Assembly: GCA_965224465.1 (NCBI GenBank)
Contig: OZ245049.1
Location: 3,480,001-3,512,000 of the forward strand
Source: Flavobacteriaceae bacterium
GTDB taxonomy: Bacteria > Bacteroidota > Bacteroidia > Flavobacteriales > Flavobacteriaceae
Direction of reading: 5' to 3'
Length of the DNA stretch: 32,000 nt
Of this stretch, positions 6,019-20,325 are shown one piece after another; position 1 is the first letter of the stretch, and each line of letters starts with the position of its first letter. A program made the translations under genes and the position numbers. Below the pieces are notes generated by a model that was given only the letters and a program-made list of their open reading frames with translations, was not told the DNA's origin and made no database searches.

Positions 6019-6918
6019 ATGAAAAAATTATTATTTGTAGTAGCAGTATTTGCTATGACTAGTGTAAGTGCGCAGTTTTATGTATCGGGTAGTGTAGGGT
6101 ATGCTATAGGTAGTGCTGGCGTAAAAATGGGAGAAATAGAAACAGATACTTCTATAGAAGCTACCTATGGAAGTTATGGAGAGGGTATGAATTCACAGTT
6201 GCGAGTTGGTTATTTTTTTAACGATACTTTTGGTGTGGATTTGGGAGTTGGTTATCTTCATGGAGCAGATCAGACCCTAAAGGATTTTAATAGACCTTCT
6301 ACGGGGCAAACATTGAAAATAATTGGTAGAGGAAGAGCTTTCGGAATTATGCCATCATTGGTGTATAAGTTTTCTGATCATATTTATGGAAGAGTTGGAG
6401 CATTGATAAAAATTGGTGGAAAAACGGAAGTTAAAGGTTCTGCGTCTGCTTTTTTACCTAATGGAACTTTACCGAGTGTACCAGCGGATGCATTATTGAA
6501 AGTTGATTTTACAAGAGATTTTCATGGTCAATTACCTTTAGGAGCTACAGCTGCTTTTGGTTATAAACGTTCGATAGGTCAGAATTTAGAGGTTTTTGTT
6601 GAAGCTGAATATATGGGAATTAGCGTACGTAGAAAAGATGCAGAGTTGTCTCAGTTTTCAGGAACTCTGACTGTTGCGGGTAAAACATCAGAAATTTCAA
6701 GAGATGGTTTGTTACAAACTATTGCTAGTTCTCCAGCATTATCAGCTAATCCTAATATTCAGACGTTAGCAATTTTAATTTCAGATAAAACAAATTATGT
6801 AGATTCAAAAGGTAATTCTCCAAGTGCAACTGAGTTTCTTGCTGATACCGTTCCATACTCATCATTTGGAATTAACTTTGGGATCACTTATACTTTTGGA
6901 AAGAGTTCAAAAAAATAA
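6019..6918 (+). CDS. Outer-membrane beta-barrel (porin-like) protein with signal peptide
   Basis: Signal peptide MKKLLFVVAVFAMTSVSAQ. Gly/Tyr/Phe-rich alternating strands. Ends GINFGITYTFGK. Confidence 0.6.
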   Translation: MKKLLFVVAVFAMTSVSAQFYVSGSVGYAIGSAGVKMGEIETDTSIEATYGSYGEGMNSQLRVGYFFNDTFGVDLGVGYLHGADQTLKDFNRPSTGQTLKIIGRGRAFGIMPSLVYKFSDHIYGRVGALIKIGGKTEVKGSASAFLPNGTLPSVPADALLKVDFTRDFHGQLPLGATAAFGYKRSIGQNLEVFVEAEYMGISVRRKDAELSQFSGTLTVAGKTSEISRDGLLQTIASSPALSANPNIQTLAILISDKTNYVDSKGNSPSATEFLADTVPYSSFGINFGITYTFGKSSKK

Positions 6919-6937
6919 AAATAGTATTTCAAACATA

Positions 6938-6967
6938 AAAAAGCGATTCTTAGGGGTCGCTTTTTTT
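6938..6967 (+). terminator. Probable rho-independent terminator
   Basis: AAAAGCGA-ttcttagggg-TCGCTTTTTTT: a short GC stem extended by A/T pairs, then a T-run. Confidence 0.6.
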
Positions 6968-7135
6968 ATATATATAAACTATTGAGTGTAAATATTTTAG
7001 CTGTTTATTTATGGATGTTACCGGACTAACGTCTTGTGTAAATGGTATAAAAAACAATATAAACAGTTCTAATAATTGAATATTTTGTGCTATATTAGAG
7101 TTTTAATAAGTGTATAACATTGAAAACCCCACGAT

Positions 7136-7639
7136 ATGTCCCTACAATCCCCACAAAAAGTTTTGGCAGTAATTATGTTAGTAGTAGCTACATTTTCTTG
7201 TAGTAACGATTTAGAAATAGTAGAAGAAATGGAACGCGTAGATGATGTGCCTTATGCGTATAGTGTTTTGGAACAAGAAATATCATTGCTTATAAATACG
7301 CATAGAGAACAGTTAGGTCTGTCTACTCTTAAAATGCTGAACGAATCTAGTCTACAATCTAGAAATCAATCTAAACACATGCTAGAGCACACACATATAT
7401 GTCATGATGATTTTTCTGATAGATATGATTATTTAGTAGCTACAGTAAATGCAATCAGAGTTGGTGAAAATACCGCATTTGGATATGAGTCCGCATCGGC
7501 TGTTGTAAATAGTTGGTTGAAAAGTTACACGCATAAAAATATCATCGAAGACCCTATGTTTACTCATTTTGGAATCTCTGTTTCAAATGGAGGTCCACGA
7601 AATAATTATTTTTGTCAAATATTTGTTCGTATACCATAA
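7136..7639 (+). CDS. CAP/SCP/PR1-like domain lipoprotein
   Basis: Lipobox-like VATFSC. CAP-domain blocks (HR.Q.GL..L, ...H...M, GEN.AFGY, S....V..W..S..H..N...P.F.H.G.S) appear in the expected order. Confidence 0.7.
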   Translation: MSLQSPQKVLAVIMLVVATFSCSNDLEIVEEMERVDDVPYAYSVLEQEISLLINTHREQLGLSTLKMLNESSLQSRNQSKHMLEHTHICHDDFSDRYDYLVATVNAIRVGENTAFGYESASAVVNSWLKSYTHKNIIEDPMFTHFGISVSNGGPRNNYFCQIFVRIP

Positions 7640-7749
7640 CTAAGGTCACTTAAAAATCTAGATAATTAAGTACCGTATCTTTACATAGTAAGTTTTGTTT
7701 TTGTACAAAAAATCAATATTTTTTTGAAAGCAGTTTTTAAAATTAATTT

Positions 7750-7787
7750 CCAAATGACTATTTATATCGGTCATTTGGATTTTTTTT
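7750..7787 (+). terminator. Perfect 9-bp hairpin plus T8. Terminator-like, and built from the terminal motif of the dispersed repeat family seen at 15.8, 20.2, 24.9 and 26.0 kb
   Basis: CCAAATGAC (7750-7758), 11-nt loop, GTCATTTGG (7770-7778), then ATTTTTTTT. Positions 7759-7778 are the reverse complement of the CCAAA(A)TGACCGATATAAATA head of the dispersed repeat. Confidence 0.5.
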
Positions 7788-7937
7788 GCTGTGACTTATA
7801 CCGAATGTATGAAAGCTCTTTATCCGTAAAATGGCTTTTTTTTAGGGTTTTCTATTTTGCTAATAGGTAAAATATACGTAGTTTTATATATTGTTTAACC
7901 TCGTGTTTATTTTTTATACGTTCAAATACAATATATT

Positions 7938-9857
7938 ATGAGTGTGTTCCCTGACATTCCAAAAACTTTATCTACAGAAAATTCTATTTTAAATAAATTA
8001 AATATCATTGTGATGTCTTTTGATTGTAATGGGCAGGTCTATTACGCATCAGAAGGGATTACACCCATTACCGGCTATACAAGCACCTCAGTTTTAGGAG
8101 AGGGATGGTGGCAGCTTTCTTTTGATACTCCTCTTTTAGGGCAGCAGCAAAAAAATGTTGTAATAGATATTTTGAAAGGATTAATACCTTATCCAACGGT
8201 ACCTATAGATCGTAAGATTCTATGCAAAGATGGATCTCATAAATGGATCGAGTGGAGGTTGTCTCGTGGAGAAGAAAATACCGTGCTTGTATCGGGTGTT
8301 GATATTACAGACTGGAAAAGAAAAGAAGAAGAGGTAGTTCAAGCGGATAAAATATTGAATAGCATAGACTCCTTGGTGTTGGTAAGTGATGAAAATAGCA
8401 GTATTTTATATGCTTCCTCTTCCGTCGAACGTATGTTAGGTTTTAGCAAAGAAGAGGTTTTAGGTACGGGTTGGTGGGAAAACACTTTCGATAGCAGGCA
8501 TGAAGCTAGTGTAGAAAAAAAAGAGATTCAAAACGTTGTGCTTTTGAACAAGCAGTTTTCTCGCGATGTTTCTAGAAGAAGAATTAAAACAAAATCAGGC
8601 AGCTATAAATGGATTGATTGGTTTGTTTCTAAAGGGATAAATAATACCTGTATTTCTGTAGGTACAGATGTTTCACGAAAAATCGCGTCTGATCTTGCCT
8701 TAAAATTAGCCAAGGAACAAGCAGAAAAATCCGTACTTGTTAAAAATGAGTTTATAGCAAATATGAGTCATGAAATTAGGACTCCTTTAAACGCATTATT
8801 AGGGTTTACAGCATTATTACTAGAAACTAAATTGGATAGCGAACAGCGAGAACACCTTGGAACTATGCGTGATTCGGGGGCTATTTTATTGTCTTTGATA
8901 AACAATGTTTTGGATTTATCTAAACTTGATTCTAAAAATATAGACCTAGAAAAAATAGTGTTTAATCTTCATAACGCACTTTGTGATGTGGTAAAAATAA
9001 TGAAGGTAAGAGCTTTGAAGAAAAATATCGCACTGGAAATCGAAATAGCTAAAGATGTACCGGAGTTTATTAAAAGTGATTCTTCTCGTTTTGATCAAAT
9101 TATGCTGAACCTTATTGGGAATGCTATTAAATTTACAGATAAAGGAGCGGTAAATATAAAGGTGAAAACAGAAAATAGAAGGGAGGATAGATGCTGCCTT
9201 ATAATTGAAGTACAGGATACCGGGCTTGGGATTATGTCTAGTAAGTTAGACCAAGTTTTTGACGTGTTTACGCAAGCTACGAGCGAAACTGCACGTATAT
9301 ATGGAGGGACTGGACTAGGATTGTCTATTGTAAAAAAACTAGTGCATCTGCTAGCAGGTGATATTAGAGTAGAAAGCGAGTATGGAAAAGGAAGTGTTTT
9401 TATTGTCGAAATCCCAATAGAGGCGGTACATGTTAAAAATAAACGACTTGACAAGGAGCTTGTTTTAACGGAGGATAAAAAAATTCATATCAATATTTTG
9501 TTGGTGGAAGACAATAAAGCCAATCAACTTCTTGCCAGTACACGGTTAAGAAGATGGGGGTGTATAGTAGCTATAGCTAATAACGGGATAGAAGCCGTAA
9601 AATTGGTAGAGAAAAACAAGCCTTATGATGTGATTTTAATGGATATTCAAATGCCAATTATGGATGGTTATGAAGCTACAAAAATTATTAAGAACGATCT
9701 GAAAGGGGCTCGCAAAGAAATACCTATTATTGCCATGACGGCGTATGCCTCCAAAACAGATATTAAGAAAGCGTTAAAAGCAGGTATGTGCGACTATGTA
9801 TTCAAACCATTTGATGCAGAGATGCTCTATAAAAAATTAATCGAATATACCTTGTAA
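7938..9857 (+). CDS. Hybrid sensor histidine kinase / response regulator with two PAS-like domains
   Basis: Two PAS-like repeats (GEGWWQLSFD / GTGWWENTFD). H-box NMSHEIRTPLNALLGF. N-box GNAIKFT. G-boxes DTGLGI and GGTGLGLSIVKKL. C-terminal receiver domain (LLVEDN ... DVILMDIQMPIMDG ... K in FKPF). Confidence 0.92.
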   Translation: MSVFPDIPKTLSTENSILNKLNIIVMSFDCNGQVYYASEGITPITGYTSTSVLGEGWWQLSFDTPLLGQQQKNVVIDILKGLIPYPTVPIDRKILCKDGSHKWIEWRLSRGEENTVLVSGVDITDWKRKEEEVVQADKILNSIDSLVLVSDENSSILYASSSVERMLGFSKEEVLGTGWWENTFDSRHEASVEKKEIQNVVLLNKQFSRDVSRRRIKTKSGSYKWIDWFVSKGINNTCISVGTDVSRKIASDLALKLAKEQAEKSVLVKNEFIANMSHEIRTPLNALLGFTALLLETKLDSEQREHLGTMRDSGAILLSLINNVLDLSKLDSKNIDLEKIVFNLHNALCDVVKIMKVRALKKNIALEIEIAKDVPEFIKSDSSRFDQIMLNLIGNAIKFTDKGAVNIKVKTENRREDRCCLIIEVQDTGLGIMSSKLDQVFDVFTQATSETARIYGGTGLGLSIVKKLVHLLAGDIRVESEYGKGSVFIVEIPIEAVHVKNKRLDKELVLTEDKKIHINILLVEDNKANQLLASTRLRRWGCIVAIANNGIEAVKLVEKNKPYDVILMDIQMPIMDGYEATKIIKNDLKGARKEIPIIAMTAYASKTDIKKALKAGMCDYVFKPFDAEMLYKKLIEYTL

Positions 9858-15658: not shown

Positions 15659-15682
15659 TTAAAAGAATACGATTGATTTTAA

Positions 15683-15716
15683 AAACACGCTTCCCCAAAA
15701 GGAGCGTGTTTTTTTA
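15683..15716 (+). terminator. Rho-independent terminator after the M24 peptidase gene
   Basis: AACACGCTTCC-ccaaaa-GGAGCGTGTT followed by T7. Confidence 0.75.
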
Positions 15717-15790
15717 TTTAGAATTAGCTAAAGGAATTGGTTTGTCCGAAATAATGTGAGCAGCATAGAATACTATCGGATTGTTGTATA

Positions 15791-15947
15791 CTGCCAAATA
15801 CATTAGCAAGTGACGGTTTAGAAATGGAATTATTTTTTGTTCTAGCTAGGTAGAAATTCTAAGGATAGCCTTAGCTGTCGTTCTATTTTTCAATAACGCT
15901 AGAACGTAAAAGAAACTATTTATATCGGTCATTTAGGATTGTAATTG
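15791..15947 (-). repeat. Dispersed MITE-like repeat, copy A (inverted orientation, long form)
   Basis: The reverse complement reads caattacaatCCTAAATGACCGATATAAATAGTTTcTTTTACGTTCTAG...CTAGAACAAAAAATAATTCCATTTCTAAACCGTCACTTGctAATGTATTTGG. It aligns by eye along its whole length with copies at 20151, 24912 and 26021. Confidence 0.75.
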
Positions 15948-16479
15948 TTATAAAGGGGGTTTTGTGATTAGAAAACAGAATAAGAGTCTTCCTTGTTTTT
16001 TGCTATGGAAAAACTAATTTGTACCTGTGGTAGTTGGGTCAGACTTTTTTTGAATGATACAATGTTGCTTTTCGGAGCGTCTCCCGATACGCTTCAAAAA
16101 AGTTACTATAGTAATAAATAGGGAGTCAGGAATAAAAAAAGAAATACAATCTTTTTAAGGATGAGTTTATTGTGGTTTTGCCCTTTTCTAGTCGTTAAAA
16201 ACGATTAAAAATGTGTATTTATTTTTGATTTGTATTTTTCTAAGTATTGTAGGTGTTGAGCTAACGATTTTTAAGTATCAAAAAAAACAAAATCAATATT
16301 ACCAAGTAATATCTGTATTTTAAATACGGTAACTAGATAAACAAAAAATACAGGAAAATTAAAGTTTTAAAAAAAACTTAAGTATATTTGAAAGGCACAT
16401 AGAAGAGATAAACGTCTAAAAACGAGTAGCCAATGCTGCATTTCAGGCAAAATGGATTACGGATATGTGGGGGTTACAA

Positions 16480-16742
16480 ACAGAATGCTCCTTTGGAGTA
16501 AATAAAAGTCCCAGAGGGACAAACTGTTCGTAGCAAATGAACAAGTAATAAAACAATAACAATAATAATCCCAGAGGGATGACCTATCGGGAGAAAAACA
16601 TATACAGATTATTCTACTGGAGTAAATTAAGAAGAAGTCCCAGAGGGACAAACTGTTTGTAGCAATCGAACAATTGAACAAACGAACGAACAAGTAATAA
16701 AATAATAATAATCCCATAGGGATGACCTGTTAAATTAACAAA
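16480..16742 (+). repeat. Two tandem REP-like modules immediately upstream of the transposase gene
   Basis: Each module consists of CT(C/A)C(T)TTGGAG / CTGGAG, then GTCCC-AGA-GGGAC (16508-16520, 16637-16649), then ACAAACTGTT(C/T)GTAGC, an A-rich spacer, and ATCCC-A(G/T)A-GGGAT (16568-16580, 16711-16723). Confidence 0.8.
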
Positions 16743-17207
16743 ATGGCTAATACATACACGCAAATATACATTCAAATTGTTTTTACGGTAAAAGGCAGGC
16801 AAAACCTAATTTCCCGAAAAAATCGTGAAGAATTACATAAATACATCACAGGTATTATCGGCATACGGAACCAAAAATTACTGGCCATATTTGCAATGCC
16901 AGATCATATTCATTTATTGGTTGGATTAAAACCTAATATTTCAATTTCAGATTTGGTTAGAGATATAAAAGCAGGTTCATCAAAATTTATTTCAGATAAT
17001 AATTGGGTAAATGGAAAATTTAGTTGGCAAGAAGGATTTGGAGCATTTTCATATTCAAAAAGTCAAATAGACACTGTTGTGAAATATATTATGACCCAAG
17101 AAGAACATCATAAAACAAAAACATTCAAAGAAGAATATTTAGATTTTTTAAAGAGATTTGATATTGATTATAATGAAAAATATTTATTTGATTGGATAGA
17201 TGAGTAG
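16743..17207 (+). CDS. IS200/IS605-superfamily Y1 (HUH) transposase-like protein, REP-associated (RAYT-like)
   Basis: 154 aa. N-terminal Y.QIYIQIVF.VKGR block. HUH motif H55-I-H57 in PDHIHLLV. WQEGFGAFS block. Tyr115 in the VKYI..Q..HH motif. REP-like hairpin clusters lie on both sides. Confidence 0.88.
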   Translation: MANTYTQIYIQIVFTVKGRQNLISRKNREELHKYITGIIGIRNQKLLAIFAMPDHIHLLVGLKPNISISDLVRDIKAGSSKFISDNNWVNGKFSWQEGFGAFSYSKSQIDTVVKYIMTQEEHHKTKTFKEEYLDFLKRFDIDYNEKYLFDWIDE

Positions 17208-17413
17208 AATCAATTAACAGGTCACACCTATGGTGTTATAATAATATTTGCACCTATGGTGCTACAAACAGTATTGCTCCTCTGGAGCATACAGCAAGGG
17301 CTAAATTTGAGCCACACAATCCGAACAAATATTAGAAAACAGTTTGCTTCCTTAATTACAAAATCTGGAGCAAATAAGAGTAGAAGTCCCAGAGGGACAA
17401 ACTGTTTGTAGCT

Positions 17414-17545
17414 GTTGTGAAATATATTTTGGACCAAGAAGAACATCATAAAACAAAAACATTCAAAGAAGAATATTTAGATTTTTTAAAGAGATTTGAT
17501 ATTGATTATAATGAAAAATATTTATTTGATTGGATAGATGAGTAG
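17414..17545 (+). pseudogene. RAYT 3' cassette 1 (codons 112-154 plus stop), allele ILDQ/EEY/KRF/DE
   Basis: 132 nt, open frame VVKYILDQEEHHKTKTFKEEYLDFLKRFDIDYNEKYLFDWIDE*. Differs from the intact gene only at ATGACC>TTGGAC. Confidence 0.9.
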
Positions 17546-17750
17546 AATCAATTAACAGGTCACACCTATGGTGTTATAATAATATTTGCACCTATGGTGC
17601 TACAAACAGTATTGCTCCTCTGGAGCATACAGCAAGGGATAAATTAGAACCACACAATCCGAACAAATATTAGAAAATAGCTTGCTTCTTAATTACAGAA
17701 TCTGGAGCAAATAAGAGTAGAAGTCCCAGAGGGACAAACTGTTTGTAGCT

Positions 17751-17882
17751 GTTGTGAAATATATTTTGGACCAAGAAGAACATCATAAAACAAAAACATT
17801 CAAAGAAGAATATTTAGATTTTTTAAAGAGATTTGATATTGATTATAATGAAAAATATTTATTTGATTGGATAGATGGGTAG
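17751..17882 (+). pseudogene. RAYT 3' cassette 2, allele ILDQ/EEY/KRF/DG
   Basis: 132 nt, open frame. TTGGAC, and the terminal GAG>GGG. Confidence 0.9.
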
Positions 17883-18088
17883 AAACAATTAACAGTTGAC
17901 ACCTATGGTGTTAGAATAATATTTGCACCTATGGTGCTACAAACAGTATTGCTCCTCTGGAGCATACAGTAAAGAATAAATTATAACCACATAATCCTAA
18001 CAAATATTAGGAATTAGTTTGCTTTCTTAATTACAGAATCTGGAGCAAATAAGAGTAGAAGTCCCAGAGGGACAAACTGTTTGTAGCT

Positions 18089-18220
18089 GTTGTGAAATAT
18101 ATTATGACCCAAGAAGAACATCATAAAACAAAAACATTCAAAGAAGATTATTTAGATTTTTTAAAGAAATTTGATATTGATTATAATGAAAAATATTTAT
18201 TTGATTGGATAGATGGGTAG
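18089..18220 (+). pseudogene. RAYT 3' cassette 3, allele IMTQ/EDY/KKF/DG
   Basis: 132 nt, open frame. Keeps ATGACC as in the intact gene but has GAA>GAT, AGA>AAA and GAG>GGG. Confidence 0.9.
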
Positions 18221-18425
18221 AAACAATTAACAGTTGACACCTATGGTGTTATAATAATATTTGCACCTATGGTGTTACAAACAGTATTGCTCCTCTGGAG
18301 CATACAGCAAGGGATAAATTAGAACCACACAATCCGAACAAATATTAGAAAATAGCTTGCTTCTTAATTACAGAATCTGGAGCAAATAAGAGTAGAAGTC
18401 CCAGAGGGACAAACTGTTTGTAGCT

Positions 18426-18557
18426 GTTGTGAAATATATTTTGGGCCAAGAAGAACATCATAAAACAAAAACATTCAAAGAAGAATATTTAGATTTTTTA
18501 AAGAGATTTGATATTGATTATAATGAAAAATATTTATTTGATTGGATAGATGAGTAG
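18426..18557 (+). pseudogene. RAYT 3' cassette 4, allele ILGQ/EEY/KRF/DE
   Basis: 132 nt, open frame. TTGGGC at codons 117-118. Confidence 0.9.
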
Positions 18558-18763
18558 AATCAATTAACAGGTCACACCTATGGTGTTATAATAATATTTG
18601 CACCTATGGTGCTACAAACAGTATTGCTCCTCTGGAGCATACAGCAAGGGCTAAATTTGAGCCACACAATCCGAACAAATATTAGAAAACAGGTTGCTTC
18701 CTTAATTACAAAATCTGGAGTAAATAAGAGTAGAAGTCCTAGAGGGACAAACTGTTTGTAGCT

Positions 18764-18895
18764 GTTGTGAAATATATTTTGGACCAAGAAGAACATCATA
18801 AAACAAAAACATTCAAAGAAGAATATTTAGATTTTTTAAAGAGATTTGATATTGATTATAATGAAAAATATTTATTTGATTGGATAGATGAGTAG
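18764..18895 (+). pseudogene. RAYT 3' cassette 5, identical allele to cassette 1
   Basis: 132 nt, identical by eye to 17414-17545. Confidence 0.9.
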
Positions 18896-19100
18896 AATCA
18901 ATTAACAGGTCACACCTATGGTGTTATAATAATATTTGCACCTATGGTGTTACAAACAGTATTGCTCCTCTGGAGCATACAGCAAGGGATAAATTAGAAC
19001 CACACAATCCGAACAAATATTAGAAAATAGCTTGCTTCTTAATTACAGAATCTGGAGCAAATAAGAGTAGAAGTCCCAGAGGGACAAACTGTTTGTAGCT

Positions 19101-19232
19101 GTTGTGAAATATATTTTGGACCAAGAAGAACATCATAAAACAAAAACATTCAAAGAAGAATATTTAGATTTTTTAAAGAGATTTGATATTGATTATAATG
19201 AAAAATATTTATTTGATTGGATAGATGGGTAG
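19101..19232 (+). pseudogene. RAYT 3' cassette 6, identical allele to cassette 2
   Basis: 132 nt, identical by eye to 17751-17882. Confidence 0.9.
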
Positions 19233-19437
19233 AAACAATTAACAGTTGACACCTATGGTGTTAGAATAATATTTGCACCTATGGTGCTACAAACAGTATT
19301 GCTCCTCTGGAGCATACAGTAAAGAATAAATTATAACCACATAATCCTAACAAATATTAGGAATTAGTATGCTTTCTTAATTACGGAATCTGGAGCATAT
19401 AAAGTAGAAGTCCCAGAGGGACAAACTGTTTGTAGCT

Positions 19438-19569
19438 GTTGTGAAATATATTATGACCCAAGAAGAACATCATAAAACAAAAACATTCAAAGAAGATTAT
19501 TTAGATTTTTTAAAGAAATTTGATATTGATTATAATGAAAAATATTTATTTGATTGGATAGATGGGTAG
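19438..19569 (+). pseudogene. RAYT 3' cassette 7, identical allele to cassette 3
   Basis: 132 nt, identical by eye to 18089-18220. Confidence 0.9.
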
Positions 19570-19773
19570 AAACAATTAACAGTTGACACCTATGGTGTTA
19601 GAATAATATTTGCACCTATGGTGCTACAAACAGTATTGCTCCTCTGGAGCATACAGTAAAGAATAAATTATAACCACATAATCCTAACAAATATTAGGAA
19701 TTAGTTTGCTTTCTTAATTACGGAATCTGGAGCATATAAAGTAGAAGTCCCAGAGGGACAAACTGTTTGTAGC

Positions 19774-19886
19774 AAACAAACAAGTAATAAAATAATAATC
19801 CCAGAGGGATGACCTGTTAAATTAACAAAAGGATTAATCTATACATGCAAATATACATTCAAATTGTTTTTACGGTAAAAGGCAGG
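19774..19886 (+). pseudogene. Second copy of the RAYT upstream flank plus the first ~19 codons of a RAYT gene, with the start codon destroyed and the gene truncated
   Basis: AAACAAACAAGTAATAAAATAATAATCCCAGAGGGATGACCTGTTAAATTAACAAAA-GGATTAATCTATACATGCAAATATACATTCAAATTGTTTTTACGGTAAAAGGCAGG parallels 16664-16798. ATGGCT has become AGGATT. Homology stops after GGCAGG at 19886. Confidence 0.85.
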
Positions 19887-20150
19887 TACTACCAAAATCC
19901 AATGCGGGCTTGTTATTAACAGGAAGTTCCGTGCTTTAAACAAAGACCGCCAACATGAACTCTCACCGATGGTAAATATTTTAATTTGAAATAAAGGTAT
20001 TTGTGATACAAGAGTGGGTTTTAAGAGGGCAAAGAAAAAACATAATATAATCTTAGACGAAGTGTTTAACCGAAAGTTTAATTACTTTTAGGCATGGTTT
20101 CAAACCTAAAGATGGTGCATTTTTAATCTCTTGTGTTCTTTATGTAATAC

Positions 20151-20278
20151 CAATTACAACCCAAAATGACCGATATAAATAGTTTGTTTTACGTTCTAGT
20201 GTTGTTTAAAAACAGAATGATAGCTAAAACAAAAAATAATTCTATTTATAAACCGTCACTTGGAAATGTATTTGGTAT
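20151..20278 (+). repeat. Dispersed MITE-like repeat, copy B (short form)
   Basis: caattacaacCCAAAATGACCGATATAAATAGTTTGTTTTACGTTCTAG...AGCTAAAACAAAAAATAATTCTATTTATAAACCGTCACTTGGAAATGTATTTGGTAT. Lacks the ~30-nt internal segment present in copies A and C. Confidence 0.75.
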
Positions 20279-20325
20279 AAACCATTAGAAAAAACATATA
20301 TAATTATACATTTTAAAAACAATAC

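Follow-up and report, generated by a model that had tools for sequence, protein, structure and literature searches.

In a 32-kb stretch of a Flavobacterium-like chromosome, called the window here, the 3' end of a gene for a repetitive extragenic palindrome (REP)-associated tyrosine transposase (RAYT; 16743..17207, + strand) is repeated downstream of itself in a tandem array of eight units of 337/338 nt (17075..19773, +), of which the first, unit 0, is the gene's real end. We consider it likely that this array is the result of an incidental tandem amplification 3' of the RAYT gene, of the type known from REPs, bacterial interspersed mosaic elements (BIMEs) and clusters of REP doublets forming hairpins (REPINs), which was followed by concerted evolution and which included the last 132 nt of the gene through an accident of the left breakpoint. 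The extra gene tails are thus best read as silent pseudogene fragments, and the array is most likely a by-product of REP/BIME-type amplification and not a system for programmed gene variation. Their open frames can be attributed to small size (44 codons) and low divergence rather than to selection, and the coding tail looks like a passenger, as the units also carry REP hairpins and a dead hsdR fragment.

The existence of the array is far beyond chance. Tandem Repeats Finder reported a single array at 17074-19773 with a period of 337, 8.0 copies and 95% matches, and the units start at 17075, 17413, 17750, 18088, 18425, 18763, 19100 and 19437, with lengths of 338, 337, 338, 337, 338, 337, 337 and 337 nt in this order. 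Each unit opens with 133 nt that correspond to the final base of codon 111, to codons 112-154 and to the gene's TAG; the 132-nt gene tail is followed by REP2(-), a CACCTATGGTG hairpin, REP1(-), an 85-nt linker with the hsdR remnant, and REP1(+), which ends in GTAGC (signs give the orientation of each REP). As such, the array has the make-up of a BIME or tandem REPIN cluster, namely a head-to-tail module with REP2(-), REP1(-) and REP1(+) in which the REPs are conserved and the linker is variable. In the centroid fold of the single-stranded DNA, the tail of REP1(-) pairs with the tail of REP1(+), giving a REPIN-like long-range stem around the linker. The left breakpoint lies inside the gene (17074..17075, +), where the break in GACAC/TGTTG (marked by the slash) precedes the Tyr115 codon by 11 nt. 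GTAGC/TGTTG is the sequence at each of the seven internal junctions, with a microhomology of one base, and the right end of the array reads GTAGC/AAAC at 19773/19774. No exact match of the junction sequence was found in metagenome contigs. A near-consensus match to a sigma-70-type promoter (TTAACA-17-TATAAT with TG) is present at 17214-17242 and at the equivalent places in units 1, 3, 4 and 5; it overlaps REP2(-), is oriented toward the linker and the next cassette, and is probably meaningless in a Flavobacterium-like host.

The gene at the head of the array is intact and encodes a Y1/HUH tyrosine transposase of 154 aa (IS200-like, RAYT-type), as identified by Pfam, NCBIfam and structure alignment. 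The protein matches Pfam Y1_Tnp (PF01797) with an E-value of 4.9e-25 and 88 bits, and carries the HUH motif at PDHIHLL, the catalytic Tyr115 and, four residues further on, the metal-ligand Gln119. Its nearest solved relatives are TnpA proteins of the ISDra2/IS608 type, and the alignment to ISDra2 TnpA (2xm3) places Y115/Q119 on Y132/Q136, with KYIMTQ facing KYIESQ. The protein passes the NCBIfam IS200 model (68.7 bits, cutoff 55), and scores 37.3 bits against the curated RAYT model NF047646 REP_Tyr_transpos, below its cutoff of 80. Homologues are often named RayT by the Joint Genome Institute. Judged from its sequence context, the gene would be a RAYT by its REP-bracketed layout, but of a clade that differs from the proteobacterial model. 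RAYT-type proteins 58-89% identical to it occur in Bacteroidota, Acidobacteriota, Verrucomicrobiota, Planctomycetota and other metagenome-assembled genomes (loci L001-L162), and no relative closer than 89% protein identity was found in the searchable collections. For transposases this is an unusual degree of conservation, a hint that the protein was domesticated or is often transferred.

As in the layout known for RAYTs, the gene sits inside short hairpins whose tails are conserved and which form two inverted pairs, one nested in the other. REP1, with the hairpin GTCCCAGAGGGAC and the tail AAACTGTTTGTAGC, makes up the outer pair, and REP2, with the hairpin ATCCCAGAGGGAT followed by GACCTGTTAA, the inner one. 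On the left, the outer flank is a REP1(+) with hairpin and tail as given (16637..16663, +), and the inner flank is a REP2(+) consisting of the hairpin ATCCCATAGGGAT and GACCTGT (16711..16730, +), 13 nt before the ATG. The inner inverted repeat spans 35 nt (16699-16733 / 17214-17248), and the outer one (16652-16664 / 17260-17272) is 100% complementary. Further upstream are the REP2(+) hairpin of the first upstream doublet, followed by GACCT (16568..16587, +), and a REPIN-like inverted pair 5' of the gene (16473..16534) composed of REP1(-) at 16473-16500 and REP1(+) at 16508-16534. In the REPs of this locus, a 13-nt tail separates the hairpin from GTAG. The same inverted-REP layout is present in the relatives L001, L040 and L062, each with its own hairpin sequences.

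The units also record what once stood next to the gene. Each of them contains a remnant of about 60 nt from the 5' end of hsdR, a gene of type I restriction: in an alignment, the linker contains CCACACAATCCGAACAAATATTAGAAAAC, which is the start of hsdR in the three closest relatives, L001, L081 and L082. In these three, the RAYT gene lies between hsdS and hsdR, with hsdR immediately downstream. A search of the locus flanks for remnants of hsdS or hsdM returned REP matches only, and either the restriction-modification genes were lost from the window or the RAYT module was relocated. Beyond the array, a spacer with a REP2(+) at 19798-19817 and a dead RAYT 5' copy extends over 19774..19886 (+), where the homology stops at 19886. 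The dead copy covers the 57 nt at the 5' end of the gene, its ATG having become AGG, and together with REP2(+) it implies that the complete RAYT module had been duplicated before and that most of the second copy was then deleted.

The sequence-only reading of this stretch had described the gene tails as seven partial copies of 132 nt, free of indels and open to the same TAG, with the length changes between 337 and 338 confined to the non-coding part. Extraction of the units bore this out, as each of the seven tails has exactly this length and is in frame, with neither gaps nor internal stops, and both indel columns (276 and 304) fall in the non-coding part. The six variable coding positions that had been counted by eye, all with non-synonymous changes, were recovered as well, in columns 17, 20 and 21 (codons 117-118; ATGACC, TTGGAC or TTGGGC), 61 (codon 131; GAA/GAT), 81 (codon 138; AGA/AAA) and 129 (codon 154; GAG/GGG). 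They define the same four cassette alleles, namely LD-E-R-E in cassettes 1 (VVKYILDQ...WIDE and stop; 17414..17545, +) and 5 (18764..18895, +), LD-E-R-G in cassettes 2 (17751..17882, +) and 6 (19101..19232, +), MT-D-K-G in cassettes 3 (18089..18220, +) and 7 (19438..19569, +), and LG-E-R-E in cassette 4 (18426..18557, +), while the expressed gene is, as stated, a fifth combination, MT-E-R-E. The accompanying caveat that an all-non-synonymous pattern is not compelling also held. Among random substitutions in the tail sequence, 70-77% were computed to be non-synonymous and 5-8% to create a stop; the probability that six of six changes are non-synonymous is 0.12-0.21, that of no stop in six changes is 0.61-0.73, and at the non-coding rate 132 nt would stay free of indels with a probability of 0.28. 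The intact frames and the all-non-synonymous pattern are statistically unremarkable.

Moreover, the seven cassettes are not seven independent copies. Differences between units four places apart number 6, 1, 4 and 15, compared with means of 13-24 at other lags, and this minimum identifies the array as a duplicated block of about four units (approximately 1.35 kb), in which cassettes 5, 6 and 7 repeat 1, 2 and 3. Over its whole length, unit 5 has one difference from unit 1, and unit 6 has four from unit 2; the non-coding part of unit 4 is as in unit 0, and that of unit 7 is of the unit 2/6 type. There are 30 substitution columns, and the 25 that are informative show no more than seven patterns. 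Tests for recombination of the kind proposed with the sequence-only reading detected it among the units: 70 of 300 site pairs fail the four-gamete test, with a minimum number of recombination events (Rm) of at least 2, and a permutation test modelled on the pairwise homoplasy index (PHI) gives p = 0.0004.

Diversity is concentrated in the linker. Nucleotide diversity (pi) is 0.024 in the coding part, 0.033 in the REP2(-)/REP1(-) segment, 0.018 in REP1(+) and 0.108 in the linker, and 19 out of 85 columns vary in the linker, compared with 6 out of 132 in the coding sequence (p about 3e-5). The 85-nt linker is thus approximately 4-5 times more diverse than the coding and REP parts (0.02-0.03); in unit 0 it lies at 17290..17374 (+; unit columns 216-300), with the core of the hsdR remnant at 17312-17335. 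The gamma haplotype of the linker, found in units 2, 6 and 7, has about nine derived changes in 45 nt. Damage to a single-stranded loop, ectopic conversion and processing by the RAYT are possible sources of this hypervariability. Selection on the cassettes was considered as an explanation for the lower variability of coding than of non-coding sequence (Fisher p = 0.03) and was rejected, as the contrast is owed to the single 85-nt linker, and the REPs, themselves non-coding, match the coding part in conservation. Conserved REPs with variable linkers are the pattern described for BIMEs (PMC3333891), and the diversity of linker and REPs in this array matches it.

The expressed gene had been suspected of being a recombinant mosaic, and the four-gamete failures, the PHI-like test and polarisation against an outgroup of 119 homologues support a historical mosaic. 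The consensus of the homologues is L117 (105 of them), N118 (106), E131 (119/119) and K138 (113), and the seven closest all have L117, E131 and K138, which shows these three states to be ancestral. M-T at residues 117-118 was found in none of the 119. The expressed gene thus carries the derived M117/T118 together with the derived R138, the ancestral L117 is retained in five cassettes, and cassettes 3 and 7 keep the ancestral K138 but have D at the invariant E131. The derived MT is present in units 0, 3 and 7 and the derived R in units 0, 1, 2, 4, 5 and 6; they overlap only in unit 0, which calls for at least one exchange between columns 21 and 81. A mosaic of this kind is what unequal crossing-over and gene conversion yield in any tandem array. 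The R138/E154/alpha-linker part of unit 0 is accounted for by an unequal crossover of the deletion type with one of the internal units.

Under the amplification that we favour, the RAYT module between hsdS and hsdR would have been duplicated at the outset, leaving a stub of hsdR next to a second REP1-REP2-RAYT 5' end. A single illegitimate join might then have created the GTAGC/TGTTG junction, through replication slippage or template switching at the hairpins, or else through the RAYT cleaving a C/TG site in its own gene and rejoining it to a REP-proximal 3'-OH, an alternative based on BIME amplification model B of Ton-Hoang et al. 2012 (PMC3333891). Homologous unequal crossing-over would have expanded the array, including the duplication of the block of approximately 1.35 kb, possibly with further RAYT-mediated exchange between the now identical junction sites. 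Finally, unequal crossovers and short gene conversions would have shuffled the few mutations among the units and into and out of the expressed copy. A first duplication through the microhomology ACTGTT, which is shared by the gene (GACACTGTTG) and the tail of the REP (AAACTGTTTG), was also considered and rejected: its product would read ...AAACTGTTGTG and lack TGTAGC, which every junction contains.

Whether the RAYT itself made the first junction is a more speculative matter. The E. coli enzyme cleaves single-stranded DNA at C/T, both beside REPs, within CTAC (GTAG on the complementary strand), and at linker sites further away, and TnpA-REP catalyses strand exchange (PMC3333891). The same work proposed that it extends BIMEs by further units, with cleavage followed by primed synthesis and rejoining, and that it can capture flanking gene fragments (PMC3333891). 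Both the site in the gene, CAC/TGTTG, and the junction GTAGC/TGTTG fit the C/T rule known from E. coli; the GTAGC tail of REP1 is what the site was joined to, and the junction recreates C/TGTTG beside a REP in every unit. By analogy with that enzyme, we regard a first junction made by the RAYT as possible but clearly less probable than its alternative, in which slippage or template switching at the hairpins would have been followed by RecA-dependent unequal crossover.

Several observations weigh against the explanation proposed here. The MT state is common to the expressed copy and units 3 and 7, and only 16-17 nt of homology are available to its left, so that a plain unequal crossover cannot move it. 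Its sharing needs short-tract conversion or re-use of the junction site, and a model that is passive throughout would lead one to expect neither. It is also odd that three substitutions fall within 5 nt at codons 117-118, and the explanation does not account for the fivefold excess of substitutions in the linker. A RAYT-catalysed origin would draw on analogy with the distant E. coli enzyme, and the right-hand site is C/A, not C/T. In addition, no REP copies were found outside the locus in the 32-kb window, as all 13 hairpin matches lie in 16510-19809.

The comparison with related loci, for which we used a set of 162 (1.28 Mb), indicates how particular this arrangement is. None of the 162 has tandem C-terminal copies. 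REP arrays adjoining the RAYT gene are common among them, with period-50 arrays just upstream of the gene in many. One partial 3' copy of its own RAYT gene, about 92% identical, is present in L062 (Alkalitalea saponilacus NZ_FUYV01000017.1) at 8232-8550; it starts from about residue 110, includes downstream REPs and lies 1.9 kb downstream, past an ATPase gene, and its breakpoint is about two codons or less from that of the window. The absence of tandem C-terminal copies from all 162 loci and this single copy argue that capture of a gene tail by REP-associated duplication is occasional and lineage-specific, and not a conserved design. In L040 (Flavobacteriales UBA720), inverted REP doublets form a tandem array (363 nt x 4.3, at 6578-8143) that starts directly after the RAYT stop codon and is without coding sequence.

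A more elaborate function of the array has to be weighed against this background. The sequence-only reading had likened it to the silent-cassette systems pilE/pilS and vls, in which case the tails would donate segments to the expressed gene by gene conversion, vary residues near the catalytic Tyr and so change activity or specificity. The polarised mosaic does imply that unit 0 and internal units exchanged sequence, each of the six changes is non-synonymous, residues 117-118 lie between the catalytic Y115 and the metal-ligand Q119, and moving their state requires conversion rather than simple crossover. However, only five codons vary, in four alleles, the non-synonymous excess is not significant, and diversity peaks in the non-coding linker instead of the coding part (pi of 0.108 against 0.024). 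The change E131D in cassettes 3 and 7 alters a residue that is invariant in the 119 homologues, which points to relaxed constraint and not to curated diversity, and the helix positions i+2 and i+3 from the Tyr are expected to face away from the active site. With the architecture missing from all 162 related loci, cassettes 5-7 being a recent block copy of 1-3 and hsdR junk in the units, the analogy is not supported, and we consider such a system highly unlikely. Slightly less implausible, although still very improbable, is a self-remodelling variant, in which the RAYT would cut C/TGTTG in its own gene and join it to a REP-proximal end, regenerating the site beside a REP, and would then add, remove and exchange units site-specifically, occasionally rewriting residues 117-118 and the C-terminal tail.

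It is extremely doubtful that the cassettes are expressed as Tyr-helix peptides of 38-42 aa, starting from a GTG at V113 in all cassettes or an ATG at M117 in cassettes 3 and 7, and act on the RAYT as modulators, for instance as competitors for its active site or by complementing it in trans. Y1 transposases such as IS608 TnpA do assemble their active sites in trans, all seven cassettes form 42-aa open reading frames (ORFs), and sigma-70-like promoter matches are found in preceding units. These matches, however, are weak evidence in a 33% GC Flavobacterium-like genome that uses other promoter motifs; synonymous changes, some of which purifying selection should leave, number zero, none of the four 42-aa cassette peptide sequences occurs in a collection of 15 billion proteins, and there is no conservation in relatives. 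An assembly artefact, in which the assembly would have wrongly expanded or collapsed a shorter repeat and errors in the reads would pass for variants, likewise has very little to recommend it. Although arrays of 2.7 kb at 95% identity are hard for short-read assembly, the variants are structured, with seven haplotype patterns and a clean four-unit period unlike random errors, the 5.24-Mb source contig implies a finished long-read assembly, and the flanks are unique and consistent.

Among known systems, REPIN/BIME-2 arrays by RAYT genes are similar to this one in their short GC-rich hairpins of alternating orientation, repeated head-to-tail with flanking DNA, in the position of the RAYT gene itself within inverted REPs, and in a copy number shaped by recombination (PMC3116915, PMC3333891, PMC3733652). 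Tandem REPIN clusters have been reported to include flanking sequence (Bertels & Rainey 2011, PMC3116915), and large REP clusters to be reiterated together with flanking DNA (Di Nocera et al. 2013, PMC3733652). Here, in contrast, the captured flank comprises the last 44 codons of the RAYT gene, including the catalytic Tyr, and the hsdR stub, the unit is long (337 nt) with the 13-nt tail between hairpin and GTAG, and the host is Flavobacterium-like and not a proteobacterium, its REPs being known from the 32-kb window alone. With pilE/pilS of Neisseria and vlsE/vls of Borrelia, the locus shares an expressed gene with promoterless partial copies in the same orientation and evidence of exchange. 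Those systems, however, have many highly diverse cassettes, coding-focused variation, conserved flanks and surface antigens as products, and pilE needs a G-quadruplex (G4)/small RNA initiator, whereas here there are four near-identical alleles of an intracellular protein, variation lies mainly outside the coding part, and the array is absent in relatives. The block duplication, mosaic units, four-gamete failures and homogenised segments are like the concerted evolution of ordinary tandem duplications. Unlike in these, the breakpoints fall on a REP tail (GTAGC) and on a C/TG site, which hints at an enzyme-made rather than a random first junction.

The window is a Flavobacterium-like segment of 33.5% GC with nuoL/M/N-type genes, transporters and an M24 peptidase whose top named matches are Flavobacterium spp. 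at about 70%. From the end of the M24 peptidase gene (15658) to the start of a MarC gene (20326), a stretch of 4.7 kb, the RAYT gene is the sole intact gene. The outer parts of this stretch, 15659-16470 and 19887-20325, are AT-rich, ORF-free flanks of the RAYT locus, for which no similarity to the fetched loci was found. An Rfam scan of the window gave no family matches. The nearest syntenic relative was located via the M24 peptidase (P0121, 88% aa identity; L163/L164), and its DNA is only about 75% identical; synteny with the nearest, L163, stops at window position 15715, and it therefore provides neither an empty-site nor a sister-array comparison.

For RAYT biology, tandem REPIN/BIME clusters that include flanking DNA are known, and the curious point here is which flank was captured, namely the catalytic C-terminus of the RAYT itself. 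The locus is a weak candidate for programmed variation of a transposase, and its practical use in this respect is one of caution, as open, all-non-synonymous "cassettes" can arise trivially from young tandem duplications. Should the self-remodelling variant nevertheless be true, the locus would be a transposase gene that remodels itself and would show, in vivo and in a natural setting, the footprint of the BIME amplification reaction that has been proposed. Natural intermediates of RAYT-driven REP/BIME amplification with readable junctions are few, and the process was proposed from in vitro work. The present array offers one sharp junction, a datable higher-order structure and outgroup-polarised exchanges, and thus could serve as a test substrate for whether the RAYTs of Bacteroidota cut and join DNA in vivo.

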